Counted from the stretch's first letter, positions 19,405-32,000 are shown. The stretch is 32,000 nt of DNA from Patescibacteria group bacterium (GCA_041674405.1 JBAYVT010000004.1:60001-92000); one strand, 5' to 3'. Program-made: numbers and translations. Notes: a model not told the origin generated them from the sequence alone.

Positions 19405-19413
19405 TGGTATAAT
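19405..19413 (+). promoter_or_regulatory. Extended -10 promoter TGGTATAAT for the xerC-like gene (leaderless)
   Basis: TGGTATAAT at 19405-19413, with a 7-nt gap to ATG 19421. It sits back to back with the minus-strand promoter, 2 nt away. Confidence 0.55.
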
Positions 19414-19420
19414 GGTGGCT

Positions 19421-20482
19421 ATGAAAGACCTTTTTAGGTTGAAGCGAGAATTTTTAGAATACTGCGAGATTGAAAAGGGCCAATCTCTTTTGACGATTGA
19501 AAATTATGACAGATACCTGTCTCGTTTTTTAACTTGGCTAAAAACCGAGAAAACTCAAAACTCAATCCGCCAACCGGCGGGCAAAAGCCAAAACAAAGGG
19601 AGTGCACTACAGACTACAGACTACAGACTACGGACTTCTGATATTGACCAGGAGATTATTCGCAAATATCGTCTATACATCAATCGTTTGCAGGGGGCGG
19701 ATGGCAGAGAACTTAAGGCAACGACACAGAATCACCATATTTTGGCCTTGAGGGCATTTTTGCGCTACCTTTCCTTTTCCGGTGAGAAGGTAATTTCGCC
19801 GGAAAAATTGACATTGGCCAAAACCGGAGATCGGGAAGTGAGTTTTCTGAACAAGGAGGAATATCTGCGCCTGCTTGATGCCCCGAATACCGCGAATTTG
19901 AATGGCCTACGTGATAAATCAATGCTTGAGCTTTTGTTTTCGACCGGTTTGCGCGTTTCTGAGCTTTGCGGCCTCAAGCTGGGGCAGATGAATTTTGACA
20001 AAGGAGAAATTGCTGTTCTGGGAAAAGGGAAAAAACTGAGAGTAGTATTCTTGTCAGATGTTACGCTCAAATATTTGGCCGACTATCTTGTAAACCGCAA
20101 AGTTTTGAAAATTATCGCTGACGACAGCTCAAGTCAATTGCAATATTTTATTTCAGAAACTTATAAAGATGATCCAGTTTTTCTTTCAAATCGCAAGAAT
20201 CCAATCAAACCCAGAGCAGTGGAGCGCCTGGTACAGAAATATGCCAAAGTTGCCGGAATTACTAAAACAGTCACGCCCCACACTCTTCGCCACACTTTCG
20301 CAACTGACTTGCTCGGTGCTGGTGCTGACATTCGTAGCGTTCAATCGCTTTTAGGGCATTCTAATATTTCCACGACTCAAGTCTATACTCACGTCACCGA
20401 CAAACACCTGAGGGAGATACACCAGAAATTCCACGATCGATCTCGTATAGAAGTAGATGAGGAACAAAAAAATTCGGGTTAA
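19421..20482 (+). CDS. xerC: Tyrosine recombinase, XerC/XerD-like
   Basis: C-terminal catalytic signature HTLRHTFATDLLGAGADIRSVQSLLGHSNISTTQVYTHV. The N-terminal SAM-like domain is interrupted by a ~30-aa low-complexity insertion. The track start at 19412 overlaps the -10 element, so ATG 19421 is preferred. Confidence 0.9.
   Translation: MKDLFRLKREFLEYCEIEKGQSLLTIENYDRYLSRFLTWLKTEKTQNSIRQPAGKSQNKGSALQTTDYRLRTSDIDQEIIRKYRLYINRLQGADGRELKATTQNHHILALRAFLRYLSFSGEKVISPEKLTLAKTGDREVSFLNKEEYLRLLDAPNTANLNGLRDKSMLELLFSTGLRVSELCGLKLGQMNFDKGEIAVLGKGKKLRVVFLSDVTLKYLADYLVNRKVLKIIADDSSSQLQYFISETYKDDPVFLSNRKNPIKPRAVERLVQKYAKVAGITKTVTPHTLRHTFATDLLGAGADIRSVQSLLGHSNISTTQVYTHVTDKHLREIHQKFHDRSRIEVDEEQKNSG
19550..19563 (+). 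repeat. Two tandem 7-nt units AAAACTC in frame inside xerC
   Basis: aaaactc aaaactc. Related AAAACTC/AAYCTCA words occur in tsaD (25175-25195) and valS (28191-28225). Confidence 0.8.
19606..19633 (+). repeat. Four tandem 7-nt units ACTACAG x3 + ACTACGG in frame inside xerC
   Basis: Indexed base by base. Encodes LQTTDYRLR. Confidence 0.95.
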
Positions 20483-20509: not shown

Positions 20510-20680
20510 TTAATTGTTATCTGGTATATCATTCCACATATCGAATACTTCTACCTGGCAAATCGCCACCTCTTTGGGGCAGTTGGCGATTTCTGTTTTG
20601 ATCTGCTCGATACGATGAAAATTCGAATTCACAGGAATTTTTGTTTTTGTATCTTCAATTTTATTTACTTTGAGTTTCAT
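20510..20680 (-). CDS. Small hypothetical protein (56 aa), below the ORF-track cutoff
   Basis: ATG 20680 to TAA 20510, translating to MKLKVNKIEDTKTKIPVNSNFHRIEQIKTEIANCPKEVAICQVEVFDMWNDIPDNN. GAAGG lies 11 nt upstream. It is convergent with xerC onto the bidirectional hairpin. Confidence 0.35.
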   Translation of the reverse strand: MKLKVNKIEDTKTKIPVNSNFHRIEQIKTEIANCPKEVAICQVEVFDMWNDIPDNN

Positions 20681-20779: not shown

Positions 20780-20799
20780 CGAAGGGATTAGATCATTAT

Positions 20800-20839
20800 A
20801 ACAAAAACGACACCCCGTGTCAACCAGTGACACGGGGTA
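20800..20839 (-). terminator. Intrinsic terminator of GC-island A gene
   Basis: Minus strand reads accccgtgtca-ctggt-tgacacggggtg followed by TCGTTTTTGTT. The stem is 11-12 bp and GC-rich, 56 nt after stop 20895. Confidence 0.7.
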
Positions 20840-20894
20840 CAGCTCTCGTCTATTCCGTTGTGGCCCAGTCTTGAGCTTGGCGGTTGGTTGGGGG

Positions 20895-21389
20895 TTATCC
20901 GGCACCCCCGTTCCAGTGTTTACCCAGCTCCGGAGGCTCCTCCGGCTGGATGTGCGGCTGTCCGGCGGGCGTCGGCGGATCAGCTCGTCTTGTTCGTTTG
21001 CGACAAGCAAGGACAACGATCGCCAGCCCAGCCAGAATAGCCAAGGTAACTCTGTAGTTCCCTGCCAGGCCCAGAGTGATCACCAGGGCCCCGATACACC
21101 ACAGCATTGCCTTAGCCGACATCTCCCTGCTCTGTTCCCTGCTATTGTCGATACCACGGCTACTGCCCATGGTCGCTCCTTTCCTCAATTTCGGAATTCG
21201 CTTCAGAAGTTGCGAGAGTGCCAGTGGCCAATTTGTCCGAAGGACAACAAATATGGCTGCTGCGCAGGCAAGGGCAAAAACGATCATTGCGAAGTAGGCA
21301 AGAATCCCGATCGAGTTGAGTGTCCCGATCGTGAATATTGCTGTGAACGTTCCGACAAGCAACCCACTCGACGATTTTTGTGGCAACAA
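20895..21389 (-). CDS. GC-rich small integral membrane protein (4 predicted TM), unknown function
   Basis: TTG 21389 lies 7 nt after AGGAGG. TM segments GLLVGTFTAIFTIGTL, IGILAYFAMIVFALACAAAIFVV, MLWCIGALVITLGLAG and TLAILAGLAIVVLA. It has its own terminator. The opposing 212-aa + ORF is Arg/Ser/Cys-rich junk. Confidence 0.7.
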   Translation of the reverse strand: MLPQKSSSGLLVGTFTAIFTIGTLNSIGILAYFAMIVFALACAAAIFVVLRTNWPLALSQLLKRIPKLRKGATMGSSRGIDNSREQSREMSAKAMLWCIGALVITLGLAGNYRVTLAILAGLAIVVLACRKRTRRADPPTPAGQPHIQPEEPPELGKHWNGGAG

Positions 21390-21478
21390 TTTCGACCTCC
21401 TGAGGGACGGGCTTGTTTGTTCGCAGAAACAAAAAACACAACGAGCAACAACTAGAAATCCAGGGTGTTACCGCTGTG

Positions 21479-22807
21479 TCACCTGTCTTCTCCAAACAAA
21501 CGGATAAGTTCCTCACGTACGACCTTGCGGTCGGAGTAGGGAACGAACTCATGTAAGCCGACTGCCATCACTTCTTCTGCTCCTTTTCCAGTAACGACAA
21601 CAACATCATTTTTTTTTGCTTCCTTTATCGCTTTGTGAATAGCTTGTTTTCGATCGAGGACTTTCCAATAATTTCGATTCAACCGCCACTGATGTTTCTT
21701 GCCGCCGCGGAAAATACCCTCTGAAACCTGCTCGATAATATCGGCAGGATTCTCGTCATACGGATCTTCGTCGGTAAAAATCACCAGATCAGCATAGTGT
21801 CCGGCAAGCGCGCCCATGATCGGGCGCTTAGTCTTGTCTCTATGGCCGGTGGCACCAAGCACGGCGATCAATCGCCCACCAGTTTTTTGTATGCTATCAG
21901 TCACTGTTTCATAAACATTTTTCAGGGAATCGGCGTTGTGGGCATAGTCCACGATTACGGTAAAGTCTTGTTTTTTACTTACTTTAATCGATTCCATTCT
22001 CCCGGTAACTCCGGACATATTCTCAAGTCCCATCCTAGTCTTTTCTGTATCGAGTCCCAAGGCAAGACCGACAGAAAATGCGGCTAAAGCATTTAGAACG
22101 TTAAAAATTCCTGGCATTTTCAAGTTGATTGTGGACTGGCCATTGTCGTATGCGGCAGTGAAAGTAACGCTCTCGGGAGAGGTCAATATTTTTCTTGCAA
22201 CCGCTCCGTGATCAACCTGCTTCTTAACTGAGTACAAAAATTTTTCGGAGGCTGGGAGAGAGTAGAATTTATTCCATTCTGCGTCATCACTATTGATAAT
22301 AAATTTTGCTTTTGGGTGATCGCGGAAAAGTTTAAGTTTGGCGTTCAGATAGTTCTCTTTGGTTTTGTGATACTCCATGTGCTCGTGCGAAAGGTTGGTG
22401 TAAACCAACACATCGAAATCGATTCCATAAATCCTGTTTTGGTCGATCGCTTGTGAAGTCACCTCTAAAATTGCATATTCACACTTATTGGCCACCGCTC
22501 TTTTCAAAAATCTTTGAATCACATCGGAGGGAGGAGTTGTTACCCATCGATCTTTGGTTTTGTGCGCGGTTATTTCGTCGTTTATTTTCGTATTGATGGT
22601 TGTTTCCATCGCGTTTTTGATGCCATTGGCATCGAGAACAGAAGCGATCATATTACAAACGGTGGTTTTCCCTTTGGTACCGGTAACGCCGATTACTTTG
22701 AGTTTTTTCGCCGGGTGGCCATATTTAAAACCGGCCCATGAAGCCTCAGCTCTGTGGAGCTTGTTTTTCGTTTTCTGCGATAAAATTTTAGATATTAGTC
22801 GTTTCAT
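21479..22807 (-). CDS. murE: MurE-like Mur ligase (UDP-MurNAc-L-Ala-D-Glu: diamino acid ligase), N-terminal domain truncated
   Basis: P-loop VIGVTGTKGKTT. NLSHEHMEYH, VIVDYAHNADSL and GATGHRDKTKRPIMG fit MurE. The mDAP-specifying DNPR position reads DEDPY (no Arg). Only ~40 aa precede the P-loop. Confidence 0.8.
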   Translation of the reverse strand: MKRLISKILSQKTKNKLHRAEASWAGFKYGHPAKKLKVIGVTGTKGKTTVCNMIASVLDANGIKNAMETTINTKINDEITAHKTKDRWVTTPPSDVIQRFLKRAVANKCEYAILEVTSQAIDQNRIYGIDFDVLVYTNLSHEHMEYHKTKENYLNAKLKLFRDHPKAKFIINSDDAEWNKFYSLPASEKFLYSVKKQVDHGAVARKILTSPESVTFTAAYDNGQSTINLKMPGIFNVLNALAAFSVGLALGLDTEKTRMGLENMSGVTGRMESIKVSKKQDFTVIVDYAHNADSLKNVYETVTDSIQKTGGRLIAVLGATGHRDKTKRPIMGALAGHYADLVIFTDEDPYDENPADIIEQVSEGIFRGGKKHQWRLNRNYWKVLDRKQAIHKAIKEAKKNDVVVVTGKGAEEVMAVGLHEFVPYSDRKVVREELIRLFGEDR

Positions 22808-22810
22808 ATT

Positions 22811-22882
22811 TTATTGCTAAATTGCTGTATTGCTAAATTGCTTACACAACAATTTGACAATTTAACCATTTAACAATTTATC
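22811..22882. repeat. Nine consecutive 8-nt units filling the murE/FemAB-gene spacer
   Basis: ttattgct aaattgct gtattgct aaattgct tacacaac aatttgac aatttaac catttaac aatttatc. The array overlaps the FemAB-gene stop (22878-22880). CAATTTAAC recurs in tsaD at 25691 and 25707. Confidence 0.95.
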
Positions 22883-23792
22883 TTCGGATTTTTTCCGCAA
22901 TTTTAAATAATTGGTATTCGAATGGTTTATAAACCTTGTCGTAACTGCCCATAATTTTAACTTCATCTCCACCGAACTGCTTTTTGAATCTGGTAACTCC
23001 TGCCCATAAGTGGCGCGGGTTGTCATCCGGCGCAATTCCGAAGAAGTCGTATATTTTGCAGCCGCGGCTTATGGCATTTTGAATCATTTCCCATTGTAAT
23101 TTGTATGGCGCCATTAGGTTCTTGAATTCGTCACTTGAGGCACCAAAAAGATAGATTGCTGAGCCCTGATAAATGCTGCAGATTGCCGCTGCTAAGACGA
23201 CTTCCTCACCTTCAATTTCGGCATAAGCTTCGAACAACTCACAATATCCCTTGGGTTCAAGAAAGTCAAGCAACTTCTGAAAATATTCCTCACCTCTAAA
23301 TGTAATTCCATGTCTCTTGCCTGTCTTCTCGTAGAGCTTGTAAAAATTACTGGCATCTCTTGTTTTTCTCACCAGAATATTATTTTTTTCGGCAACCTTG
23401 ATGTTATAGCGGCCTTTCTGTTTCATCTCACCAAGAAGGTCATCATTCGATTTGGAGAGGTCAAGAACTAGGGTGTGTTCCGGCTGCATCTCCTCGAAAG
23501 ATTTAATTAGTCCATAGTCTGTAGTCTGTAGTTCATAGTCTGTGGGGATATCGAATTCAATCCGGTAGAAAATTGCATTTTCCTCTTTTGCTATTTGAAA
23601 GGTTTGGTTCCAGTAGCTTTGGTTTTTGACATTTGAAATTTGATCTTGACTCGCCATCGGCGAGTATAACATCGACCTTCCCATTGGCAGGTCTTTTTTG
23701 AGCACCAAAATATCCTCGACGCGAAAGGATTTCGAATAGCCTGTAGCGAGTTTAAATTTCTCCCATTCGGGAGATTGAAATATAGAACTCAT
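22878..23792 (-). CDS. FemAB-family peptidoglycan interpeptide-bridge aminoacyltransferase
   Basis: N-terminus MSSIFQSPEWEKFKLATGY, and the overall FemX/FemAB-like pattern (YLFGASSDEFKNLMAPYKLQWEMI, GVTRFKKQFGG). Confidence 0.8.
   Translation of the reverse strand: MSSIFQSPEWEKFKLATGYSKSFRVEDILVLKKDLPMGRSMLYSPMASQDQISNVKNQSYWNQTFQIAKEENAIFYRIEFDIPTDYELQTTDYGLIKSFEEMQPEHTLVLDLSKSNDDLLGEMKQKGRYNIKVAEKNNILVRKTRDASNFYKLYEKTGKRHGITFRGEEYFQKLLDFLEPKGYCELFEAYAEIEGEEVVLAAAICSIYQGSAIYLFGASSDEFKNLMAPYKLQWEMIQNAISRGCKIYDFFGIAPDDNPRHLWAGVTRFKKQFGGDEVKIMGSYDKVYKPFEYQLFKIAEKIRR
23513..23547 (-). repeat. Five tandem 7-nt units (coding sense ACTATGA ACTACAG ACTACAG ACTATGG) in frame inside the FemAB-family gene
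   Basis: The + strand reads catagtc tgtagtc tgtagtt catagtc tgtgggg. Encodes YELQTTDYG. Confidence 0.95.
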
Positions 23793-23799
23793 TACCTAA

Positions 23800-23808
23800 A
23801 TATTATCA
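23800..23808 (-). promoter_or_regulatory. Extended -10 promoter TGATAATAT for the FemAB-family gene (leaderless)
   Basis: Reverse complement of 23800-23808, with a 7-nt gap (ttaggta) to ATG 23792. This is the same geometry as the xerC and PAP2 promoters. Confidence 0.5.
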
Positions 23809-23828
23809 CTCTTGCCTCTTGCTGCCAA

Positions 23829-23870
23829 TAAAAAAGAGGGCCTCCTGACCCGGTGGGACTGGGTCGGAGG
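23829..23870 (-). terminator. Intrinsic terminator at the left edge of GC-island B
   Basis: Minus strand reads cctccgaccc-agtcccacc-gggtcaggagg (one bulge) followed by CCCTCTTTTTTA. Confidence 0.65.
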
Positions 23871-23885
23871 CGGTGCGGGTTGCGG

Positions 23886-24110
23886 CTATCCTGAGAGAAT
23901 ATCGCATCCCCGGGGAGGCTCCTTGCGATGGCCATGGATTGCCTTCATTGCCGTCAGGCGGTAGCTCTGTCCATGTATCTTCGACATCGCTTCGTGGTGA
24001 CGGATGCGCCACATAACGCGCTCCGTCATACCTGGCTTGGGTAAATCGGAATGGGCTCCGACCACCAAACCAAGCGTACATCCCAATCTCTGATTTGCTG
24101 TCTTTATCAT
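23886..24110 (-). CDS. GC-rich small ORF (74 aa), reading frame uncertain
   Basis: ATG 24110 lies 8 nt after GGAGGAG, and stop 23886 lies 16 nt before the terminator stem. Hand-counted third-position G+C is 43/74. The competing 112-aa frame (23806-24144) runs through the terminator and has lower GC3 (about 42/88). The protein (MIKTANQRLGCTLGLVVGAHSD...) matches nothing I recognise. Confidence 0.3.
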   Translation of the reverse strand: MIKTANQRLGCTLGLVVGAHSDLPKPGMTERVMWRIRHHEAMSKIHGQSYRLTAMKAIHGHRKEPPRGCDILSG

Positions 24111-24195
24111 GTCCACCACTCCTCCAGAAGTTCTGTGATTCCAAGCTAGTGTAAAATTACTATAATGTCAAGCTCTGCATTAGATAATTTGGCAT

Positions 24196-24233
24196 ATAAA
24201 AAATTAAGCCCCCACCTAGCGTGTAGGTGGGGG
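24196..24233 (-). terminator. Intrinsic terminator inside GC-island B
   Basis: cccccacct-acacgct-aggtggggg (9-bp stem, 24209-24233) followed on the minus strand by CTTAATTTTTTATA. The stem overlaps the last codons and stop of the 62-aa ORF. Confidence 0.65.
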
Positions 24234-24404
24234 TGCGACTTGCGGGACCATCTCGATGCTGTTGCGCGGCACTTCGTGCCGTCTCAGTGTACCGCCATCG
24301 AGAGCGGCGCGGACGACAGCTTTGCCGCCTTTGTATTCGATGAGAGTACCACCAGTGTACTTGCCGTCTTTCTGCCTGATTCTCACGCGCGCGTTGATGG
24401 GCAT
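24216..24404 (-). CDS. GC-rich small protein (62 aa), possibly an SH3/KOW-like beta-barrel
   Basis: ATG 24404 is preceded by GAGGTGAAAGGC (the track start at 24413 is GTG). Sequence MPINARVRIRQKDGKYTGGTLIEYKGGKAVVRAALDGGTLRRHEV. It has its own terminator and an AT-rich upstream patch at 24430-24475. Confidence 0.5.
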   Translation of the reverse strand: MPINARVRIRQKDGKYTGGTLIEYKGGKAVVRAALDGGTLRRHEVPRNSIEMVPQVAPPPTR

Positions 24405-24496
24405 GCCTTTCACCTCGTGGCAGTATTTCAGTCCAACTCATTGTTAATATATCAAAAAAATATGCAGAGTAAACAGCAACACCGCAGGCGTGTTGC

Positions 24497-24868
24497 CTAC
24501 GGTGCGCGGTCGCTTCGAGGCGAAGTTGCCCAGTCTACACAGCCCAGGAGGCCTGCGTGGACGAGCGGGCGAATAGCCCCTGCCAACTTGGTCGTCGTCA
24601 TCGGGTCGCGTGGAATTCCATCCCAGGAAATGATGGTTCCGTTTCTGAAGTAGCGGGGCGTTTCCTTACCATCCCTGTTATAGGTGGTGACTTTGACGAT
24701 CCCGCATGGCTCCAGATTGTAACCGCCATTGCCTGTGATTCTGTCCACATCTGCCAACATGGTTGCGATTAGGCGTCGCTCTTTGGAAGACAGACAGCTC
24801 CTTCGCTTTAGCACCATGAGGTGCAAGGTGATAACCTCCTTCTTCGACAGAATTCCAATCCTCTGCAT
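24497..24868 (-). CDS. GC-rich hypothetical protein (123 aa)
   Basis: The ATG 24868 ORF spans the right part of island B. No recognised motifs and no clear SD. It is divergent from tsaD. Confidence 0.45.
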   Translation of the reverse strand: MQRIGILSKKEVITLHLMVLKRRSCLSSKERRLIATMLADVDRITGNGGYNLEPCGIVKVTTYNRDGKETPRYFRNGTIISWDGIPRDPMTTTKLAGAIRPLVHAGLLGCVDWATSPRSDRAP

Positions 24869-24931
24869 TATGGTTTTAGATAATTGATTGAGTCAACCCA
24901 ACAATTTTCCGAGTGGTAAAAAGTTTGGTTT

Positions 24932-24942
24932 TGTGCTAGAAT
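24932..24942 (+). promoter_or_regulatory. Extended -10 promoter TGTGCTAGAAT for tsaD
   Basis: Identical 11-mer to the PAP2 promoter. An 11-nt gap to ATG 24954 and no SD, implying a very short leader. Confidence 0.5.
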
Positions 24943-24953
24943 TTTTCAGTTAA

Positions 24954-26168
24954 ATGACAAAGAAAAACCTAAAAATTTTAGCAATCGAAACAAGCTGTGA
25001 TGAGACGGCTGCTGCTGTGATTTCTGAAAATCGAAATAAACCAGAAATACTATCGAACATTGTTTCTTCACAAATTGATCTTCATGCTAAGACCGGCGGA
25101 GTAGTGCCGGAAGTTGCATCGAGAGCGCATATGGAGGCGATATTGCCTGTCGTAAGTGAGGCGCTTGTACAGGCAAAACTCAAAAATCCAGAAAAACTAC
25201 GGACTACGGACTACAACCTACAAACTGGTCTGTCGGATATCACCCATATTGCCGTAACTGCTGGGCCAGGGCTGATCGGCTCACTCTTGGTTGGGTTCAA
25301 CACGGCAAAATCGCTGGCTTATTCGCTGGATTTGCCAATCATTCCAATCAATCATATAGAAGGACATGTGTACTCCGCATTCGCGGAGCAATTTCCAATT
25401 CCCAATTTCCAATTTCCAATTCTAGCATTGACTGTGTCTGGCGGCCATAGCTCGTTAACTTTGATGAAAGATCACGGAATCTATGAAAATTTGGGTCAGA
25501 CTTTAGATGATGCGGCGGGAGAAGCTTTCGACAAGGTTGCGAAACTTCTCGATCTTGGTTATCCAGGAGGACCGGTGGTTTCTAAACTCGCGGACGAGTT
25601 AAGAAACAAAGTCAAAAATCAAAGATCACCCGTCTCGGCCGAGGCACGATCCGAGGTCGGAAAGATCAAAAATAATAAAGAAAAAAATAGCAATTTAACA
25701 ATGAAACAATTTAACAACGAGATTGTATTTCCCCGTCCGATTCTGAATGACGGCACATTCAATTTCTCATTTTCCGGATTAAAAACCGCGGTTTTGACGG
25801 AGGTGGTCAAACTAAGGACTAAGGACTACGAACTACCGACTAGTGAAATCTGTGCGGCATTTGAAGATTCGCTTACCGATGTGCTTACGACAAAAACAAT
25901 GAGAGCGATTGATAAATTCAAACCAAAAGGTTTGATTCTTGCCGGAGGAGTAGCGGCCAACAGCTATCTGCAAGCCGAACTTCAACGGAAGGTTAATGAA
26001 TACAATCAGACTTTAAAGAAAAGAGATCAGATTAATTTTTATATGCCTCCGCGGGATATGACAGGTGACAATGCGGCGATGATCGGTCTTGCAGCTTACT
26101 ATCATATATCGAGGGGAGATGTAAAAGGGTGGGACGAGATCGAAGTCGATTCAAATTTTAAGCTCTAA
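24954..26168 (+). CDS. tsaD: tRNA N6-adenosine threonylcarbamoyltransferase TsaD, carrying four repeat-derived insertions
   Basis: ILAIETSCDETAAAV, TAGPGLIGSLLVG, HIEGH, VSGGHS, FSFSGLKTAV and GGVAAN are all canonical TsaD/Kae1 motifs. Confidence 0.95.
   Translation: MTKKNLKILAIETSCDETAAAVISENRNKPEILSNIVSSQIDLHAKTGGVVPEVASRAHMEAILPVVSEALVQAKLKNPEKLRTTDYNLQTGLSDITHIAVTAGPGLIGSLLVGFNTAKSLAYSLDLPIIPINHIEGHVYSAFAEQFPIPNFQFPILALTVSGGHSSLTLMKDHGIYENLGQTLDDAAGEAFDKVAKLLDLGYPGGPVVSKLADELRNKVKNQRSPVSAEARSEVGKIKNNKEKNSNLTMKQFNNEIVFPRPILNDGTFNFSFSGLKTAVLTEVVKLRTKDYELPTSEICAAFEDSLTDVLTTKTMRAIDKFKPKGLILAGGVAANSYLQAELQRKVNEYNQTLKKRDQINFYMPPRDMTGDNAAMIGLAAYYHISRGDVKGWDEIEVDSNFKL
25196..25228 (+). repeat. 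Tandem 7-nt units ACTACGG ACTACGG ACTACAA CCTACAA ACTGG in frame in tsaD
   Basis: Encodes KLRTTDYNLQTG. Preceded by aaaactcaaaaatccagaaaa. Confidence 0.95.
25389..25423 (+). repeat. Five tandem 7-nt units CAATTYC in frame in tsaD
   Basis: caatttc caattcc caatttc caatttc caattct. Encodes QFPIPNFQFPIL immediately before the VSGGHS motif. Confidence 0.95.
25691..25718 (+). repeat. Direct repeat CAATTTAACAA x2 (period 16) in frame in tsaD, within a ~38-aa insertion
   Basis: caatttaacaa tgaaa caatttaacaa. The surrounding insertion reads NKVKNQRSPVSAEARSEVGKIKNNKEKNSNLTMKQFNNE. Confidence 0.9.
25811..25845 (+). repeat. Five tandem 7-nt units ACTAAGG ACTAAGG ACTACGA ACTACCG ACTAGTG in frame in tsaD
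   Basis: Encodes KLRTKDYELPTSE. Confidence 0.95.
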
Positions 26169-26178
26169 AACGGCGAAC

Positions 26179-26202
26179 GCCACCCCGATGTTCTGGGGTG
26201 GC
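26179..26202. terminator. GC-rich hairpin gccacccc-gatgttct-ggggtggc between the convergent tsaD and island C genes
   Basis: 8-bp stem. The + strand is followed by GCGCTTTGTTCTT and the minus strand by GTTCGCCGTTTTA. Confidence 0.55.
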
Positions 26203-26229
26203 GCGCTTTGTTCTTGGTGGTGGCCGCTA

Positions 26230-26745
26230 CTAGGCGACCAACCGCAGGGTCGTGTCGAAGCCGGAAAGCCAGGTCGCGACCTGGTCGTAGGCCTCTCTGG
26301 CCCCGTTGTCGAAGTCCTCAGGCCGCAGGATCTGGTCGCTGGGGACCATTATCCGCGACTGCAGCTCCGCTTCCGGAACGCCGGTTGCCCGCTCTGTGGC
26401 CTCGAAGGGCGCTCCTGCTAGGAAGTCCTCGATGGTTAACGGGCCGCCGGAAGTGACATCCCCGAACTGCTTGGATGAGATGACCACATAGCCGCCAGTG
26501 GCGAGCGTGGCCATCATGTCGATGTGGGTCCGAGCAACGTTCCTCTCGGTGACGTAGTAGAGCTCGGCGACGCGGACGTCGCGGGCCATCACAAAGTTGG
26601 GAATGTTCCCCGGAACATGGCGCGGCGCCAGGCGGACCGGAGTGAACGGCGCGTCCTCAAGTGCCTTTGCGAGAAGGCGCCCATGGCCGGGGTTGCCGGC
26701 CACGATGAGCAATGTGGCTTGGTTTATCACAAGCATTACCTCCAT
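26230..26745 (-). CDS. GC-rich hypothetical protein with a degenerate P-loop-like N-terminus
   Basis: LLIVAGNPGHGRLLAKAL resembles GxPGSGKSTLAKAL of small P-loop kinases but lacks the Lys-Ser/Thr. GGAGG lies 8 nt before GTG 26730, suggesting the true start is there (MINQATLLIVAGNPGHG). Confidence 0.65.
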   Translation of the reverse strand: MEVMLVINQATLLIVAGNPGHGRLLAKALEDAPFTPVRLAPRHVPGNIPNFVMARDVRVAELYYVTERNVARTHIDMMATLATGGYVVISSKQFGDVTSGGPLTIEDFLAGAPFEATERATGVPEAELQSRIMVPSDQILRPEDFDNGAREAYDQVATWLSGFDTTLRLVA

Positions 26746-26771
26746 GGGTTTGTTCCGTCCTGCTCGAGCAT

Positions 26772-26800
26772 TTTATATCATAAAATAAACAAATTGTCAA
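26772..26800 (-). promoter_or_regulatory. Sigma70-type promoter for the island C gene: TTGACA, 17 nt, TATAAA
   Basis: -35 is the reverse complement of 26795-26800 and -10 the reverse complement of 26772-26777. It lies in AT-rich DNA just outside the GC-rich block. Confidence 0.55.
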
Positions 26801-26897
26801 TCGTAAATACGAATAATTGTTCATCTGGTGCGTTTTTATTGGATTCAGCCTCTTTTTGTGTTATTCTTAAGCACGAAACTGGTTAATTTCGGAAGTT

Positions 26898-29147
26898 ATG
26901 TCAAAAGAATTCGCCAAAACCTGGGACTCGAAGAAGTTTGAAGAGGATTTATACCAAAACTGGGAAAAATCCGGCTATTTCAAGCCTGAATTGAACATGC
27001 CCGAAAATCCAAAATATGATCGGGCGCTCGAAGGCAAACCATTCGTCATCCCAATTCCGCCGCCGAATGTCACCGGCAAGCTTCACATCGGCCATTCGTT
27101 ATTCATCACAATTCAGGATGTCATGATCCGCTTCCATCGCATGCTTGGCGAGCCCACGCTTTGGATCCCCGGCACCGATCACGCCGGTATCGCTACGCAG
27201 ACGGTCGTGGACAAAGCCTTACAAAAAAAGGGAATTAAGCGCCACGAAATTGGCCGTGAGAAATTTGTCGAAGAAGTTTGGAAGTGGAAAGAAGAATACG
27301 GCGGTATTATCACCTCACAACTCAAACGAATGGGTGCTTCCTGCGACTGGTCGCGCGAGCGTTTTACCCTCGACGAAGGTTTATCCAAAGCTGTGAAAGA
27401 GGCATTTGTCCACCTATACGAGAAGGGATTGATCTACCGCGGCGAATATATCGTCAATTGGTGCCCGAAATGCGGCACGGCGATCGCGGATGACGAGATG
27501 GAGCACGAAGAACAAACCGCAAAATTGTACTATTTCAAATACGACAAAAACTTTCCGATCACCATAGCAACTACCCGGCCAGAAACCAAACTTGGAGATA
27601 CGGCTGTGGCGGTCAATCCAACCGACAAGCGTTATGAGCAGTACATTGGCAAAGAATTCGATGTTGATATCGATGGCGTTAAGCGCAAGATCAAAATTGT
27701 TGCCGATCGCTCTATTGATATGAAATTCGGTACCGGCGCAGTCGGAATTACGCCTGCACACTCGGCTATCGACTGGAAAATCGGTGAAGTTAATGATCTT
27801 CCGATTGTCAAAGTCATCGACGAACGAGCAAAAATGACCGCCGAGGCCGGCAAATACGAGGGAATGAAGGTGCTCGAAGCCCGAGAAAAACTAGTTGAAT
27901 ATCTGAAAGGCGAAACACTCCTGGAAAAAGAGGAGCCGATCACAAATAATTTGAGCGTCTGCTACCGCTGCAACACGGCTATAGAGCCGATTCCGTCTCT
28001 ACAGTGGTTTGTGAGTATGCGCCCACTGGCAGAAAAAGCTAAAGCGGCCGTAACCTCCGGCGCTATCAAAATTATCCCGAAAAGATTTGAGAAGAATTAC
28101 AATCAGTGGATGGACAATATCCGCGACTGGTGCATCTCCCGCCAGCTTTGGTGGGGACACAGAATCCCGGTTTGGTATCGCAAACAGGAAAATCTCAAAC
28201 CTCAAACCTCAAATCTCAAACCCGAAGACATCTATGTCGGAAAAGAACCGCCAGCTGATATTGAGAGTTGGATTCAAGACGAAGATGTGCTCGATACCTG
28301 GTTTTCCTCGGCGCTTTGGCCGTTTTCTTCACTTGGTTGGCCAGAGAAAACCAAAGATCTGCAGTATTTCTATCCGGCAACCGTTCTCGAAACCGGATAT
28401 GACATTCTCTTTTTCTGGGTCGCCCGAATGGTAATGATGGGACTTGAGCTTACTGATTCGATTCCATTTGAGAATATTTACCTCCACGGCTTGGTTCGCG
28501 ATGAGAAAAATAGAAAGATGTCCAAGTCTCTCGGCAATGCGCTCGATCCGCTCGATATGATCGATAAATACGGCACAGATGCTGTCCGGATGGGTCTTGT
28601 GGTCGGCACTACCCCCGGGCTTGATATTCCTGTGGGTGAGCACAAGCTTAAGAATTATCGCAATTTCTCGAACAAAATCTGGAATGCCTCGCGCTTCGTT
28701 TCTCTTCGAGTTTCCGAAGGTGATCTGGCCTCGGGAGAAATTGGAGATGAGAAAATCGAGAACTTAAATATCGACCAATCAATTTTAACCGACGCCGACA
28801 AAAAAATTCTCGAAGCACACGAGGAAATCAAAAAGCGCGTGACAAAAGACCTCAAGGAGTTCAAATTCTCTGGCGCCGGCGAAGGGCTATATGAGTATTT
28901 CTGGCACAATTTCTGCGATATCTACATAGAAGCTGCTAAAGGGCAGCTCCAAACTGAAGAACCGAAGAACCGAAGAACCGAAGAACATTCAGAAAACACA
29001 AAAAAAATCCTGCTCAAAGTTCTGTCTGAATCTTTACAGATGCTGCATCCGTTCGTTCCTTATGTCACCGAAGCTGTCTGGCAGGAACTACGCGAAATTT
29101 ATCCAAAACTTTCCGAATCGATCATGATCTCCAAGTGGCCTATGTAA
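26898..29147 (+). CDS. valS: Valine--tRNA ligase (short form, no long C-terminal coiled coil), carrying two repeat-derived insertions
   Basis: PPPNVTGKLHIGHS (HIGH motif), TTRPETKLGDTAVAVNP and RKMSKSLGN (KMSKS motif). A possible extended -10, TGGTTAATT (26880-26888), lies 9 nt before the ATG. Confidence 0.95.
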   Translation: MSKEFAKTWDSKKFEEDLYQNWEKSGYFKPELNMPENPKYDRALEGKPFVIPIPPPNVTGKLHIGHSLFITIQDVMIRFHRMLGEPTLWIPGTDHAGIATQTVVDKALQKKGIKRHEIGREKFVEEVWKWKEEYGGIITSQLKRMGASCDWSRERFTLDEGLSKAVKEAFVHLYEKGLIYRGEYIVNWCPKCGTAIADDEMEHEEQTAKLYYFKYDKNFPITIATTRPETKLGDTAVAVNPTDKRYEQYIGKEFDVDIDGVKRKIKIVADRSIDMKFGTGAVGITPAHSAIDWKIGEVNDLPIVKVIDERAKMTAEAGKYEGMKVLEAREKLVEYLKGETLLEKEEPITNNLSVCYRCNTAIEPIPSLQWFVSMRPLAEKAKAAVTSGAIKIIPKRFEKNYNQWMDNIRDWCISRQLWWGHRIPVWYRKQENLKPQTSNLKPEDIYVGKEPPADIESWIQDEDVLDTWFSSALWPFSSLGWPEKTKDLQYFYPATVLETGYDILFFWVARMVMMGLELTDSIPFENIYLHGLVRDEKNRKMSKSLGNALDPLDMIDKYGTDAVRMGLVVGTTPGLDIPVGEHKLKNYRNFSNKIWNASRFVSLRVSEGDLASGEIGDEKIENLNIDQSILTDADKKILEAHEEIKKRVTKDLKEFKFSGAGEGLYEYFWHNFCDIYIEAAKGQLQTEEPKNRRTEEHSENTKKILLKVLSESLQMLHPFVPYVTEAVWQELREIYPKLSESIMISKWPM
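28191..28225 (+). repeat. Five tandem 7-nt units AAYCTCA in frame in valS
   Basis: aatctca aacctca aacctca aatctca aacccga. Encodes ENLKPQTSNLKPE. Confidence 0.95.
28956..28987 (+). repeat. Four tandem 8-nt units GAAGAACC in frame in valS
   Basis: gaagaacc x3 + gaagaaca. Encodes TEEPKNRRTEEH. The reverse complement ggttcttc occurs twice in the 20748-20779 spacer. Confidence 0.95.
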
Positions 29148-29188
29148 CATATGTTGCATTGACAAATTAATGTAACATATGTTACAAT
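29143..29188 (+). promoter_or_regulatory. Toxin-antitoxin promoter with two 16-bp palindromic operators
   Basis: TGTAACATATGTTGCA (29143-29158), TTGACA (29159-29164), TGTAACATATGTTACA (29171-29186) and -10 TACAAT (29183-29188). The spacer is 18 nt. ATG 29198 lies 9 nt after the -10. Confidence 0.6.
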
Positions 29189-29197
29189 AAAATCGAA

Positions 29198-29449
29198 ATG
29201 CAACACGATTATGTTTCGACAATTGAAGCGGCAAAAATCACAGGTTTGAACAGAACCCAGATTTTTCGCTTGATCAAGGTGGGCAAACTCCCAGCCGCTC
29301 GTATTGGGCGCAATTATATCATCAAAAAAGATGATCTCGGAATTTTGACTGCAGAAATTACGCCAAAAGAGAAGAAAAACATCGAACACTCGGTAGATAA
29401 GGTTTTTGAAGAGTATGGCGATGTGCTTAAAAAACTGGGGGAGGAATGA
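29198..29449 (+). CDS. Excisionase/MerR-type helix-turn-helix DNA-binding protein, putative antitoxin
   Basis: STIEAAKITGLNRTQIFRLIKVGKLPAARIGRNYIIKKDDL is a typical excisionase-family HTH. It forms an ATGA overlap with the downstream Doc gene. Confidence 0.8.
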   Translation: MQHDYVSTIEAAKITGLNRTQIFRLIKVGKLPAARIGRNYIIKKDDLGILTAEITPKEKKNIEHSVDKVFEEYGDVLKKLGEE

Positions 29450-29865
29450 TATTCCCAATCTCATTAAACGAGGTTGAGCTTATTTCTCACCGAATGGCAA
29501 AAGAAATGCTTCGCTGGAATGAACCAATTCCTGATTTCTCCACCCGCTATCCCAATGTGCTTGAATCTTGCCTATCTACACCATTTCAAACCTATAATAA
29601 GCGAAATCTTTACCGCGGCCTTGTGCCACAAGCTGCAGCTTTGTTTTATCTGATGATTAAAAACCACCCGTTTCAGAATGGGAATAAAAGGGTGGCGATC
29701 ACGACTTTGTTCGTATTTTTATCGAAAAATGGCAAATGGATCCGCGTCGATTCGCAAGAACTATACAATCTCGCTGTCTGGGTAGCCGGCTCTCCGCCTG
29801 CTTTTCGTGAAGAAGTAGTTGCCGCAATTGAAAAATTCCTTAAGAAAAATATTGTTGATAAATAG
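29446..29865 (+). CDS. doc: Doc (death-on-curing) / Fic-family toxin
   Basis: HPFQNGNKRVA matches the Doc variant of the Fic motif, HxFx(D/N)(A/G)NKR. GGGGAGG lies upstream of ATG 29446. Confidence 0.9.
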   Translation: MIFPISLNEVELISHRMAKEMLRWNEPIPDFSTRYPNVLESCLSTPFQTYNKRNLYRGLVPQAAALFYLMIKNHPFQNGNKRVAITTLFVFLSKNGKWIRVDSQELYNLAVWVAGSPPAFREEVVAAIEKFLKKNIVDK

Positions 29866-29973
29866 AAATTTCAGTATGTGCAAAAAATGCACATATAGAT
29901 TAGTCAATTCTACAATGGATAATATCTTAGTTATTTCCATTTTGAAAAACACCTGAAATATCAAACGTAAAAC

Positions 29974-30158
29974 TTGACAAAATTTTATCAGCTGTTAAAG
30001 TATGAACAATTTAGTCTCTGGAATTATCATGATTAAGAAAAGCAACAATCAGGTGCGTCGTCATCATTACCCGTTTCTCTCGAGCTGCTTTTTTGTTGTG
30101 TAAAACTTTATAAAATCTCATAGACATCAAGGTTGGCAGCTCGAGAGAGCTGTTTTTT
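29974..30158 (+). promoter_or_regulatory. Candidate promoter + leader with alternative hairpins upstream of the GC-rich GNAT gene
   Basis: TTGACA (29974-29979), 16 nt, TAAAGT (29996-30001). A perfect 13-bp inverted repeat tctctcgagctgc (30076-30088) / gcagctcgagaga (30136-30148) competes with a 6-bp hairpin cagctc-gaga-gagctg + TTTTTT (30137-30158). A 33-codon ORF at 30002-30103 (MNNLVSGIIMIKKSNNQVRRHHYPFLSSCFFVV) covers the left arm. Confidence 0.35.
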
Positions 30159-30214
30159 CGTACCTTGAAATCTTGTCTGTAATAAAATCAATCTGGAAAA
30201 GGAGATGGTAGAAG

Positions 30215-31237
30215 GTGGTAAACACGAGTGAGGTTGTCGGTAAGTCCGAGTGTGCGCGGATCATTTCAGAAATGATCCGGCCCGAGTCAGCGTCTGGAAA
30301 GATGCTGTACCGCGATCAAGACGAGATTCTCTCAATGCTCGAATCCGGACATAGCACGTTCATCCGAGATGGCGCCGGTATGCCGGTGTCATTCTGCGGC
30401 TTCTATGAGTTCGACCAATACATCGAGGTCGGCTCTACGATCACGAATCCGGAATTTCGCGGGCGTGGGCTTGCCACCGAGTGCCTTTACCGGGTGCTGG
30501 ATGCCATTCAGTGTTCCGGGAAGGAGATAGTGGCATTCTGCAACGATGGCTCAGCTGGTCTCTTTGCGAAAGCCGGATTCAGCGAACGGCCAAAGGCCGA
30601 GATGCCGGACGAAGCGCTAGCTTTTTGCGCAGACTGTGCGGAGAGCCAAACATTCCCAGGATGTCACTGCCGCTACATGGTATTTGGGCATCGAGTTGTG
30701 CAGGGAAGGGGCGTCTGGCACACGATCATCGAAGACCCGGCAGGCGGCCAGCTTAAAAAGGTGGCAGAGCTTTACTGCCAAGTCTGGGCGGAGCCGCCTT
30801 GGGACGAGTACGACTGGGATCTGGCCGAGGTTGAGACCGAACTTAGTGAAGCGTCAAGTGATCCAGCAACGGCATTCTTTGTGAGTATGGTCCGTGGAGA
30901 AGTCAACGGCTTCACCATAGGCTACCCGATGGACAAGACGGCGCTTGCGGCGAAAGCCGGAGGAGAACAACTTGGCCATCTGTGCGAAGATCGCAGGCAG
31001 GTCTTCTATGTGGCCGAACTGGGAGTGGCGAAAGAATCCCGGTGCCATGGCACGGGAATCATGCTATCAGAGCTACTCTCTGCCAGGGCAAGGTCTCTCG
31101 GGTACAGCCGGCTGATCCTGCGTACTCACATAAAGGCCGCCCCCGCCAGGGCGTTGTATGCCAGGCTGGGGTTTGTCGATACCGGCATTCCTGACGCAAA
31201 CTACCCCGATCGCACATACTGGGTTTACGACGAATAG
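30215..31237 (+). CDS. GC-rich tandem-GNAT N-acetyltransferase (two acetyltransferase domains, Cys-rich linker)
   Basis: GTG 30215 lies 10 nt after AAGGAG. Domain 1 has motif A, FRGRGLATECL...AKAGF. Domain 2 is VAKESRCHGTGIMLSELL...ARLGFVDTG. The linker is FCADCAESQTFPGCHC. Confidence 0.85.
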   Translation: MVNTSEVVGKSECARIISEMIRPESASGKMLYRDQDEILSMLESGHSTFIRDGAGMPVSFCGFYEFDQYIEVGSTITNPEFRGRGLATECLYRVLDAIQCSGKEIVAFCNDGSAGLFAKAGFSERPKAEMPDEALAFCADCAESQTFPGCHCRYMVFGHRVVQGRGVWHTIIEDPAGGQLKKVAELYCQVWAEPPWDEYDWDLAEVETELSEASSDPATAFFVSMVRGEVNGFTIGYPMDKTALAAKAGGEQLGHLCEDRRQVFYVAELGVAKESRCHGTGIMLSELLSARARSLGYSRLILRTHIKAAPARALYARLGFVDTGIPDANYPDRTYWVYDE

Positions 31238-31256
31238 CGCAAGGTACGAACATCCA

Positions 31257-31282
31257 GCCGAGCGGGCAAAAACCCGCTCGGC
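31257..31282 (+). terminator. GC-rich stem-loop gccgagcggg-caaaaa-cccgctcggc at the right edge of GC-island D
   Basis: 10-bp perfect stem, 20 nt after the GNAT stop. No T-run follows, so terminator function is uncertain. Confidence 0.4.
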
Positions 31283-31307
31283 CAGCATTCATAAATTAAG
31301 GAGAAAA

Positions 31308-32000
31308 ATGGATCTGGAAATCTTAAAAAAGTTAGTAGAGTTTGACACAAGATCGGAAAATACGAATTTGCCGCTAATTTATTATTGCCAAAAGAAATTT
31401 GAAGAGTATGGTTTTGAAACGCGAATATGGGGAAAGGACAACAAAGCAAATTTATTTGCATTCAAGCCTGCTTATGGCAGTAGAATTGTACTTTCGGCGC
31501 ATACCGACACCGTCCCGCCCGGCGAAGGTTGGAATTCGGACCCATTCAAGCTTGAACAAAATGAAGATTCGATAATTGGGTTGGGTATTGCCGACATGAA
31601 AATTTTTATTGCGATCATGCTTAAATTGGCTCAAGCTAATTTAGCCAAAAATTTAGCCTTTCTTCTAACTTACAACGAAGAAACCGATTTCGAAGGGGCA
31701 AAATTAATTGATAGAAAAATTATCGGCAAAAGCGATTATTTAATCATTGGAGAACCGACTGGCGGGAAGATTATTACAAATTCTAAGGGTCTTGTCGCAT
31801 ATGAGCTGGAATTGACCGGAAAAGGAGGCCACGGAAGCGAACCGGAAAATGGAGTCTCCAGCATATTAGACTCATCAAAATTTATTTTAGAATTGTCGAA
31901 AGGATTTAAAGAAATTCAAGAAAAAAACAAAGATGATTCATTTGTAAATCCACTGCCTACTTTGAATTTTGGCACAATTTCTGGCGGAGAAGCTATAAAC
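31308..32000 (+). CDS. M20-family metallopeptidase (ArgE/DapE-like deacylase), partial (continues past window end)
   Basis: ATG 31308 lies 5 nt after AAGGAG. LSAHTDTVPPGEGWNSDPF and GLGIADMKIF are the M20 metal-binding and catalytic motifs. The frame is open to position 32000 and is absent from the ORF track because no stop lies in the window. Confidence 0.85.
   Translation, partial: MDLEILKKLVEFDTRSENTNLPLIYYCQKKFEEYGFETRIWGKDNKANLFAFKPAYGSRIVLSAHTDTVPPGEGWNSDPFKLEQNEDSIIGLGIADMKIFIAIMLKLAQANLAKNLAFLLTYNEETDFEGAKLIDRKIIGKSDYLIIGEPTGGKIITNSKGLVAYELELTGKGGHGSEPENGVSSILDSSKFILELSKGFKEIQEKNKDDSFVNPLPTLNFGTISGGEAIN

Follow-up and report, generated by a model that had tools for sequence, protein, structure and literature searches.

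Streamlined bacteria such as Prochlorococcus and SAR11 have hypervariable islets between their core genes, and phage morons and integron cassettes are small, self-contained or hairpin-terminated units with orphan genes that lie between other genes. Deviation in G+C content (GC) is the standard cue for horizontally acquired DNA and is assumed to fade with time: the amelioration model of Lawrence and Ochman from 1997 reportedly reads a GC deviation that affects each of the three codon positions as the mark of foreign origin and is said to predict that the third positions converge on the host value. Here we describe four GC-rich mini-islands, A to D, located between AT-rich genes in a stretch of 32,000 nucleotides from an AT-rich, ultra-small Patescibacteria group bacterium (GCA_041674405.1, JBAYVT010000004.1:60001-92000; below called the window, with positions counted from its first letter), together with the genome-wide class of GC-rich genes to which they appear to belong.

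Up to 13% of the genome length in Patescibacteria was attributed to horizontal gene transfer (HGT), and the passages on GC content and genomic islands in the same source do not describe GC-rich mini-islands (PMC12455944). The islands of the present genome resemble both the Prochlorococcus and SAR11 islets and the HGT islands of Patescibacteria in having small, often orphan accessory genes in core-flanked slots that differ between relatives. In contrast to both, they hold one to three genes, have no tRNA, integrase or repeat at the borders and form one coherent compositional class, at least some members of which keep their composition through deep divergence, and their cargo is GC-richer than the genome, not AT-richer. 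The atypical composition expected of horizontally acquired islands was evident (GC 0.53-0.64 vs 0.42; dinucleotide signature difference δ* 0.155 vs 0.018), while an examination of the borders for tRNAs, integrases and repeats gave no mark of mobility and no homologs were found in a donor lineage, the full-length homologs of island D occurring only on contigs or genomes that share its neighbours. Similar to the foreign genes of the amelioration model, the island genes are atypical in GC at all three codon positions; unlike what this model predicts, island D and several other families stay 0.10-0.22 GC above their flanks in lineages that are 26-62% identical.

The GC of species-specific prokaryotic orphans was found to track that of the genome almost one to one (0.45 vs 0.46, rho 0.96), and to be lower in virus-like orphans (PMC11293555). 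The island orphans are likewise short, lineage-restricted and without homologs, but lie 11-21 GC points above their genome. With phage morons and integron cassettes the island units have in common the small size, the self-contained or hairpin-terminated build and the orphan genes. Unlike morons, however, they are flanked by chromosomal core genes (murE, femAB, tsaD and valS, in conserved order and with no prophage), and unlike integron cassettes they are dispersed, have no attC-like shared end motif, array or integron integrase, possess their own promoter in each unit and end, in islands A-C, in ordinary terminator hairpins with T-runs. A literature search found no description of this GC-rich cassette pattern.

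GC-Rich Islands and the Genome-Wide Gene Class

We consider it somewhat probable that the islands are self-contained small-gene cassettes in variable slots, members of a discrete and coherent GC-rich class that extends across the genome and its relatives and is kept GC-rich. The sliding GC profile had four peaks, at the positions given for A-D in an earlier note made from the sequence alone, whose six hand-counted 60-nt G+C values all turned out exactly right on recount. Whole-island GC (0.635 in C and 0.569 in D; Table 1 for A and B) compares with 0.42-0.455 in the neighbouring core genes of the window, and in 600-nt windows the islands ranked in the 96th-99.8th percentile of genome GC (z 2.1-4.0). 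The steepest rise and fall were located at 23837 and 24866 for island B, 26178 and 26718 for C, and 30200 and 31286 for D; island A, most GC-rich at 20800-21200, rose at about 20810 and fell gradually, most steeply at about 21571, inside murE.

The GC at the first, second and third codon positions (GC1/GC2/GC3), about 0.50/0.35/0.45 in core genes, was used to pick the coding frames. In agreement with the one to three small genes per island proposed in the earlier note, islands A, C and D had one open reading frame (ORF) each and island B three; the GC-rich hairpin terminators proposed for A-C and the GC hairpin without a T-run at the end of D were present as well. In island B, AT-rich patches separated the genes, and the GC-rich parts were the coding bodies and hairpins, not the whole block. 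Each unit consisted of an AT-rich promoter patch, then a GC-rich coding body and then a GC-rich hairpin.

The whole genome (929 kb in seven contigs, 42% GC) contained 67 islands of at least 400 bp and at least 55% GC, in total 67 kb or 7% of the genome. DNA-level similarity was absent between any of the 67, and a repeat or mobile-element family was rejected on this ground. In a crude ORF set, GC was bimodal with the main mode at about 0.40 and a second at about 0.58; the latter comprised about 100 ORFs, 65 of them with codon-position periodicity, and the class amounts to about 65-100 ORFs and 5-7% of the DNA. The GC-rich ORFs were shorter, and their translations contained more Arg, Pro, Cys, Trp and His but less Lys, Ile and Asn. 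On class average the edges were step-like: GC was 0.58 as far as the gene edge and dropped to 0.38 over 40-80 nt on the upstream side and over about 40 nt beyond the stop codon, which assigns the GC-rich state to the coding body plus hairpin and not to a DNA block. The dinucleotide signature of the class differed from the core by the above-mentioned δ* of 0.155, while core resampling gave 0.018. At the same time, δ* of genes to their own pool was 0.078 in the GC-rich class and 0.084 in the core, and 95% of the GC-rich genes were nearer to the GC-rich pool; such internal homogeneity points to one source type or one process.

Contig ends fell within about 500 bp of an island in five of 14 cases (about one expected, P = 0.002), and from these breaks the islands may be strain-variable or poorly covered. 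The ends concerned in this genome (G000) were the end of contig C1, both ends of C3, the end of C4 and the start of C7.

A further 20 GC-rich ORFs, taken from other parts of the genome, were joined into two concatenated queries and compared with 40 relatives: 11 had no homolog, eight had patchy homologs and one matched only the orthologs of an AT-typical paralog. Of the 17 homologous places that were fetched, ten, with identities of 26-54%, exceeded the GC of their flanks by 0.08 or more. The families GC-rich in relatives included secreted proteins (26-29% identity, five genomes), two families at +0.20 and +0.22, and PurM-like genes (52-54%). The GC-rich state persists in relatives commonly, but not universally.

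By sequence reading, three GC-rich genes of G000 resembled purine-biosynthesis enzymes: a PurM-like gene, a PurC/PurE-like fusion and a PurN-like gene (C3:4109-5227, C3:109215-110591 and C3:126480-127196). Purine-like genes were present in 2-3 of the 40 relatives, and the PurM-like gene had 58% GC in all three genomes holding it. A membrane protein gene at C1:77018-77947 (GC 0.60), reading as HtpX/M48-peptidase-like, has an AT-typical paralog (0.43) at C2:76603-77505 with 30% identity; relatives possessed only one homolog of this pair (27-36% identity), which presumably corresponds to the AT-typical copy.

Island D in Relatives

The GC-rich state of island D and of several other families has persisted through deep divergence inside AT-rich genomes. 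The island D gene, encoding a predicted two-domain acetyltransferase, is old and was kept by vertical descent. Its protein matched Pfam Acetyltransf_1 in two stretches (4.5e-19, 69.3 bits, curated cut-off 20.7), had a Cys cluster between the two domains and gave PDB profile matches to GNAT enzymes only; 40 columns were invariant over eight homologs. Besides the genome's own copy, seven homologs were found among 5.8 billion proteins, while a scan of the named genomes with a pattern from the GNAT alignment gave no match. The five homologs whose context was examined, at 41-58% identity, were all GC-rich; the contigs or genomes on which they lay were AT-rich and had the same neighbours, and in four cases Berkelbacteria-type core genes stood alongside. 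This is the outcome that the earlier note had named as refuting its own proposal of a high-GC donor or host, and for island D the proposal has to be given up.

In G003, L053 and L055 the gene immediately precedes the M20 gene, and in L052, L054 and G003 it follows a Fic/Doc gene, the version in G003 being single-domain. Its GC was 0.54-0.60 in the relatives vs 0.36-0.45 in the neighbours, and the five full-length orthologs, at star-like pairwise identities of 55-62%, all had GC3 of 0.60-0.75. The identities to G003 (41% for the GNAT protein, 44% for dapE and 46% for tsaD) fit what joint vertical descent would produce. At fourfold sites in conserved codons, 39 changes from the consensus were GC to AT and 28 AT to GC, i.e., composition was roughly stationary. 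Since the core genes are only about 67% identical at the DNA level, silent sites are saturated, and a passively decaying import should by now have reached the host composition unless it had been extremely GC-rich at the start.

Island D is bracketed by a 16-nt direct and a 19-nt inverted repeat. The latter was rejected as a border mark, being not conserved in orthologous loci and probably a chance occurrence. The direct repeat is imperfect (14 of 16 positions matching; 30184-30199 and 31305-31320) and its second copy spans the M20 start codon; it could be a chance occurrence as well, or an old insertion scar copying the start of the neighbour.

Conserved Gene Order and Variable Slots

The gene order uppP-pap2-xer-(56-aa gene)-murE-femAB-tsaD-valS-(Fic/Doc)…M20 was kept across about 20 relatives. 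By MurE (68-76% identity), the nearest named genomes were Candidatus Berkelbacteria and other Patescibacteria metagenome-assembled genomes (MAGs). The slots within this order varied. Slot A spanned about 120-1129 bp, the empty ones being 120-230 bp long and others containing unrelated DNA; slot B spanned 59-1078 bp, with 59-200 bp in many relatives and unrelated DNA in others; and slot C spanned 17-1577 bp. Filled slots in the relatives often contained small GC-rich ORFs with GC peaks of 0.53-0.65, for example a lipoprotein gene in slot A of G005 and a 175-aa ORF with GC3 of 0.74 in slot C of G028, and GC islands covered 7.3% of about 145 kb of the relatives' DNA. None of the slot occupants of the relatives was related to the islands of this genome, and they were mostly unrelated to each other, except for one AT-typical gene common to two genomes. 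The 175-aa ORF and the island C gene, considered as positional homologs, had unrelated sequences.

The content of the slots changes from genus to genus. The islands are separate and self-contained, added in spacers whose occupants differ in the same way, and piecemeal gain and loss describes them fairly, in line with the piecemeal acquisition put forward in the earlier note. A comparison with relatives, in the direction of the sister-genome check suggested there, showed island D at its own site in these genomes too, while searches with the ORFs of A, B2 and C gave no match, the nearest available genomes belonging to other genera.

A 50-85-nt element with 72-81% identity was common to unrelated GC-rich occupants of slot A (L060:4629-4713, L062:1828-1910 and L067:5091-5142); it adjoins the 56-aa gene and was not detected in the present genome.

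The earlier note had placed all islands in spacers between essential genes. This does not hold for D, whose left neighbour is a helix-turn-helix (HTH)-Doc toxin-antitoxin pair. Its statement that the borders lack an integrase, repeats and tRNAs stood for tRNAs, of which the window has none, and for repeats, none of which was convincing (the border repeat search found no terminal repeats bracketing A-C), but needs correcting as to the integrase: a tyrosine recombinase gene (PF00589) is located at 19412-20482, about 300 bp from island A. In all relatives sampled far enough to include this gene, it keeps its place in the gene order with slot A filled or empty, and such independence of the slot content makes a housekeeping Xer the most likely assignment.

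Possible Origin and Maintenance of the GC-Rich State

Excess mRNA folding was a real but partial correlate of the GC-rich state. Against permutation of synonymous codons, with protein and codon usage fixed, the GC-rich genes had a mean folding z of -1.19 (p = 2e-9) and the AT-typical genes -0.45 (Mann-Whitney p = 7.5e-4 for the difference). In the window, the same permutation gave z of -2.2 for B1, -2.3 for B3, -1.4 for A, -0.7 for D, -0.3 for C and +0.8 for B2, while against dinucleotide shuffles z averaged -1.1 to -1.5. Biased gene conversion as the cause was disfavoured by the edges, which step at gene boundaries without gradients. A lack of tRNAs for GC-ending codons was discarded as well: 16 of the 46 tRNAs have C at the wobble position, and the set decodes GC-ending codons fully.

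In the favoured explanation by cassettes kept GC-rich, these would enter and leave the slots by DNA uptake and recombination with no mobility gene or repeat involved, and a force acting on the coding body would block their relaxation to the AT-rich level of the host; the likeliest force would be selection, partly linked to mRNA folding or stability. A more far-reaching possibility, put forward here as tentative, is that Berkelbacteria-type members of the Candidate Phyla Radiation (CPR) have two stable compositional 'dialects', an AT-rich core and selectively maintained GC-rich small accessory genes, with a GC-rich state that would be restricted to coding bodies, long-inherited and linked to more strongly folded mRNAs.

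Several points weigh against cassettes kept GC-rich. The folding excess is moderate, and neither island C, which has the highest GC, nor B2 shows it. Seven of the 17 homologs in relatives were AT-typical (PurN-like, one lipoprotein and one GNAT among them). The signature of the class is foreign-like, as expected of imported DNA, and islands A-C, having no relatives, could be recent. As for island D, the stationarity test had about 48 sites for each lineage to draw on, with two of the lineages leaning to GC loss, and a very GC-rich start followed by slow, partial decay could leave GC3 at 0.6-0.75.

The best surviving alternative, which we regard as rather unlikely, is a recent piecemeal transfer, at least of A-C, from a high-GC donor, possibly the host, with fragments of 58-65% GC settling in tolerated spacers and remaining undecayed. 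Such a transfer would agree with the shift that affects each of the three codon positions and resembles a gene of a genome with about 57-63% GC, with the foreign-like, coherent dinucleotide signature, compatible with one donor type, with the lack of matches for A-C, searched with the ORFs of A, B2 and C, in the 43 other genomes of the order, and with the contig ends in islands, which suggest strain-variable DNA. However, ordinary high-GC genes would usually find relatives, and neither island C nor B1 had a homolog among 5.8 billion proteins; for A-C, to which no homolog was found, no donor can be named, and the donor proposed in the earlier note gained no evidence from them. Furthermore, many diverged relatives with AT-rich DNA have GC-rich versions of island D and other members of the class, and class homologs that are still GC-rich at 26-54% identity are a poor fit to recent import and decay. 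The patches between the genes of island B are AT-rich with native-type promoters, unlike a block from a GC-rich genome, and the second GC mode is discrete, with no continuum of decay.

A clade-specific GC-rich mobile pool (phages, plasmids or other extrachromosomal elements), repeatedly delivering and replacing cassettes at the same slots, would account for the coherent second signature, the orphans and their patchy distribution, the unrelated GC-rich cargo in the same slots and the contig breaks at islands, and in one related contig a GC-rich gene was located beside a transposase. We nevertheless judge it improbable: A-C had no phage family match, there is no integrase apart from the syntenic Xer and no att-like or terminal repeat, and the stable position, conserved leader and neighbour-like divergence of island D point to vertical descent. 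In addition, phages are usually AT-richer than their hosts (PMC11293555).

It is still less probable, to a marked degree, that some islands, A and B especially, encode structured RNAs and that their ORFs are by-products of high GC. The coding signature is indeed weak in A (Table 1), the frames in B are ambiguous with overlapping calls on the opposite strand, and folding reached z of about -2 in B1 and B3, with the above-mentioned average against dinucleotide shuffles; but these z-scores are modest for structured RNAs, no Rfam family matched at the gathering score in a scan of the whole window (which also gave no tRNA), codon periodicity is clear in C and D, the latter being a conserved enzyme, and in each unit of B an ORF is accompanied by a Shine-Dalgarno-like sequence and a terminator.

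The islands are correctly assembled and not chimeric. Three separately made assemblies were compared at the junctions: a 158-kb ENA contig and a Logan contig (run SRR6484325) matched the window with 100% identity over 15.8 kb and 11.9 kb, respectively, and together span all eight island junctions. At the borders, moreover, island and native signals are intertwined: one two-way terminator serves both tsaD and the gene of island C, the island A terminator contains the native promoter of the conserved 56-aa gene, and the dapE ribosome-binding site follows directly after the island D hairpin. Although the source is a MAG, an assembly or binning artefact with GC-rich reads of another organism spliced into the contig is thus hardly worth considering, given the three identical assemblies, the interlocking signals, the GC-rich D orthologs at the same locus in MAGs of other studies and the 67 internal islands with clean gene-level edges.

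Genes and Signals of Islands A, B and C

The features of the four islands are collected in Table 1. By sequence, islands A-C would be lineage-specific orphans of the GC-rich class.

Table 1. Coordinates of the island genes and their predicted signals in the 32,000-nt window.
Feature	Position	Strand	Description
Island A	20790-21470	-	Cassette in the slot from xer/56-aa gene to murE; GC 0.545 vs 0.42 in core
Island A ORF	20895-21389	-	164 aa; 91 aa from internal Met in public assemblies; GC1/2/3 0.56/0.51/0.60
Island A terminator hairpin	20810-20840	-	13 bp plus T-run
Island B	23806-24870	-	Slot between femAB and tsaD; three small GC-rich transcription units; GC 0.533
B1 ORF	24497-24868	-	123 aa (109 aa in public calls); GC1/2/3 0.51/0.49/0.65
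B1 promoter-like site	24896-24867		
B1 terminator	24505-24479		
B2 ORF (putative frame)	24216-24413	-	65 aa; GC1/2/3 0.65/0.49/0.66
B2 promoter-like patch	24473-24446		
B2 terminator	24233-24209		Overlaps stop codon
B3 ORF	23886-24119	-	77 aa (74 aa in public calls); GC1/2/3 0.58/0.45/0.60
B3 terminator	23851-23838		
Island C ORF	26230-26745	-	171 aa; GC1/2/3 0.66/0.44/0.80, strongest coding signature
Two-way terminator hairpin	26178-26203	.	Common to tsaD (+) and island C gene (-)
Island D leader	29974-30160	+	AT-rich, conserved in five lineages
Leader promoter	29974-30001	+	TTGACA-16-TAAAGT
Leader ORF	30029-30103	+	24 codons, MIKKSNNQVRRHHYPFLSSCFFVV
Antiterminator arms	30076-30088 and 30136-30148	+	
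Leader terminator hairpin plus T7	30135-30160	+	
Island D gene	30215-31237	+	Two-domain GNAT N-acetyltransferase, 340 aa; GC1/2/3 0.61/0.46/0.64
3' hairpin	31257-31282	+	10-bp GC hairpin without T-run, between GNAT gene and M20 gene

The island A ORF, with its weak codon-position signature, has hydrophobic segments in the translation and is a predicted membrane protein; its match to DUF6479 was weak and below the threshold. For this ORF and B2, six-frame searches of the 43 other genomes of the order gave no match. A perfect TTGACA-17-TATAAT promoter with a TG extension (20823-20795) overlaps the island A terminator and drives toward the 56-aa gene (20510-20680), which is conserved and adjoins xer in most relatives.

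Among the ORFs of island B, B1 matched only itself among 5.8 billion proteins, and profile-family scans with B3 gave no family at the threshold, with marginal PHROG matches only. In the B2 region the public gene callers chose a 137-aa ORF on the opposite strand.

The probable start of the island C ORF is Met4 or Val6, behind GGAGG, and its product shows an alpha/beta pattern. One artefact match aside, it had no homolog in the 40 relatives, among 5.8 billion proteins or among 1.8 billion representatives, and no Pfam, NCBIfam or PHROG match. The artefact came from an exhaustive HMMER search, which retrieved a Big_4 protein with 13 repeats; the score was inflated by the 13 identical repeats and the match was dismissed as spurious. 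The AlphaFold model had a low confidence (predicted local distance difference test score, pLDDT, 59), and a fold search with it matched nothing. Searches against phage families gave nothing beyond marginal PHROG matches for A-C.

Leader and 3' Hairpin of Island D

Ribosome-mediated transcription attenuators with leader peptides control the his, trp, leu and thr operons of enterobacteria. The layout of the island D leader looks like such an attenuator, which makes it a candidate Arg/His leader-peptide attenuator in a CPR bacterium. In common with the enterobacterial systems, it has a short ORF with putative regulatory Arg/His codons, the 3' end of the ORF would serve as an antiterminator arm, and the antiterminator helix would compete with the terminator hairpin and U-run. 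It differs in having two to four Arg/His codons and no long run, in its occurrence in a CPR bacterium and in the genes under its predicted control, encoding the GNAT protein and the M20 peptidase. The leader was more conserved than the coding sequence (88% identity to L052 vs about 67%). Across five loci the leader ORF had 24-28 codons, with an Arg/His cluster in all (RRHH, HRHSR or RNHRR), and RNAalifold predicted 24 pairs, four with compensatory changes. The long-range helix has its 5' arm at the end of the leader ORF, while the 3' arm overlaps the terminator hairpin and U-run. Comparison of the leader with Rfam yielded no fitting family, only chance miRNA-like matches.

The 3' hairpin was found in all five orthologous loci with compensatory changes, e.g., GAGCGGG/CCCGCTC vs GGGTGGG/CCCACCC, and might serve to process or stabilise the mRNA. 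The M20 (dapE/argE-like) gene starts at 31308, after AAGGAG; this ribosome-binding site and the ATG directly after the hairpin suggest that the D and M20 genes are probably co-transcribed.

Biological Significance

The island D leader represents a regulatory candidate in the CPR, a group in which gene regulation is almost unknown. At the genome level, in a reduced genome of AT-rich composition, a tenth of the genes stand sharply apart as a GC-rich class, some members of which were kept GC-rich while the lineages diverged so far that silent sites are saturated. If the islands are indeed cassettes kept GC-rich, compositional detectors of HGT will mislabel native genes in these lineages, and selection or an unknown mechanism would have to counteract the universal mutation pressure toward AT one gene at a time, so that what sets GC content becomes testable within a single genome. 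If the more tentative proposal of two dialects is true, GC-richness would be a functional property, related, for example, to transcript stability or to the expression of accessory genes, and not a foreign trace.

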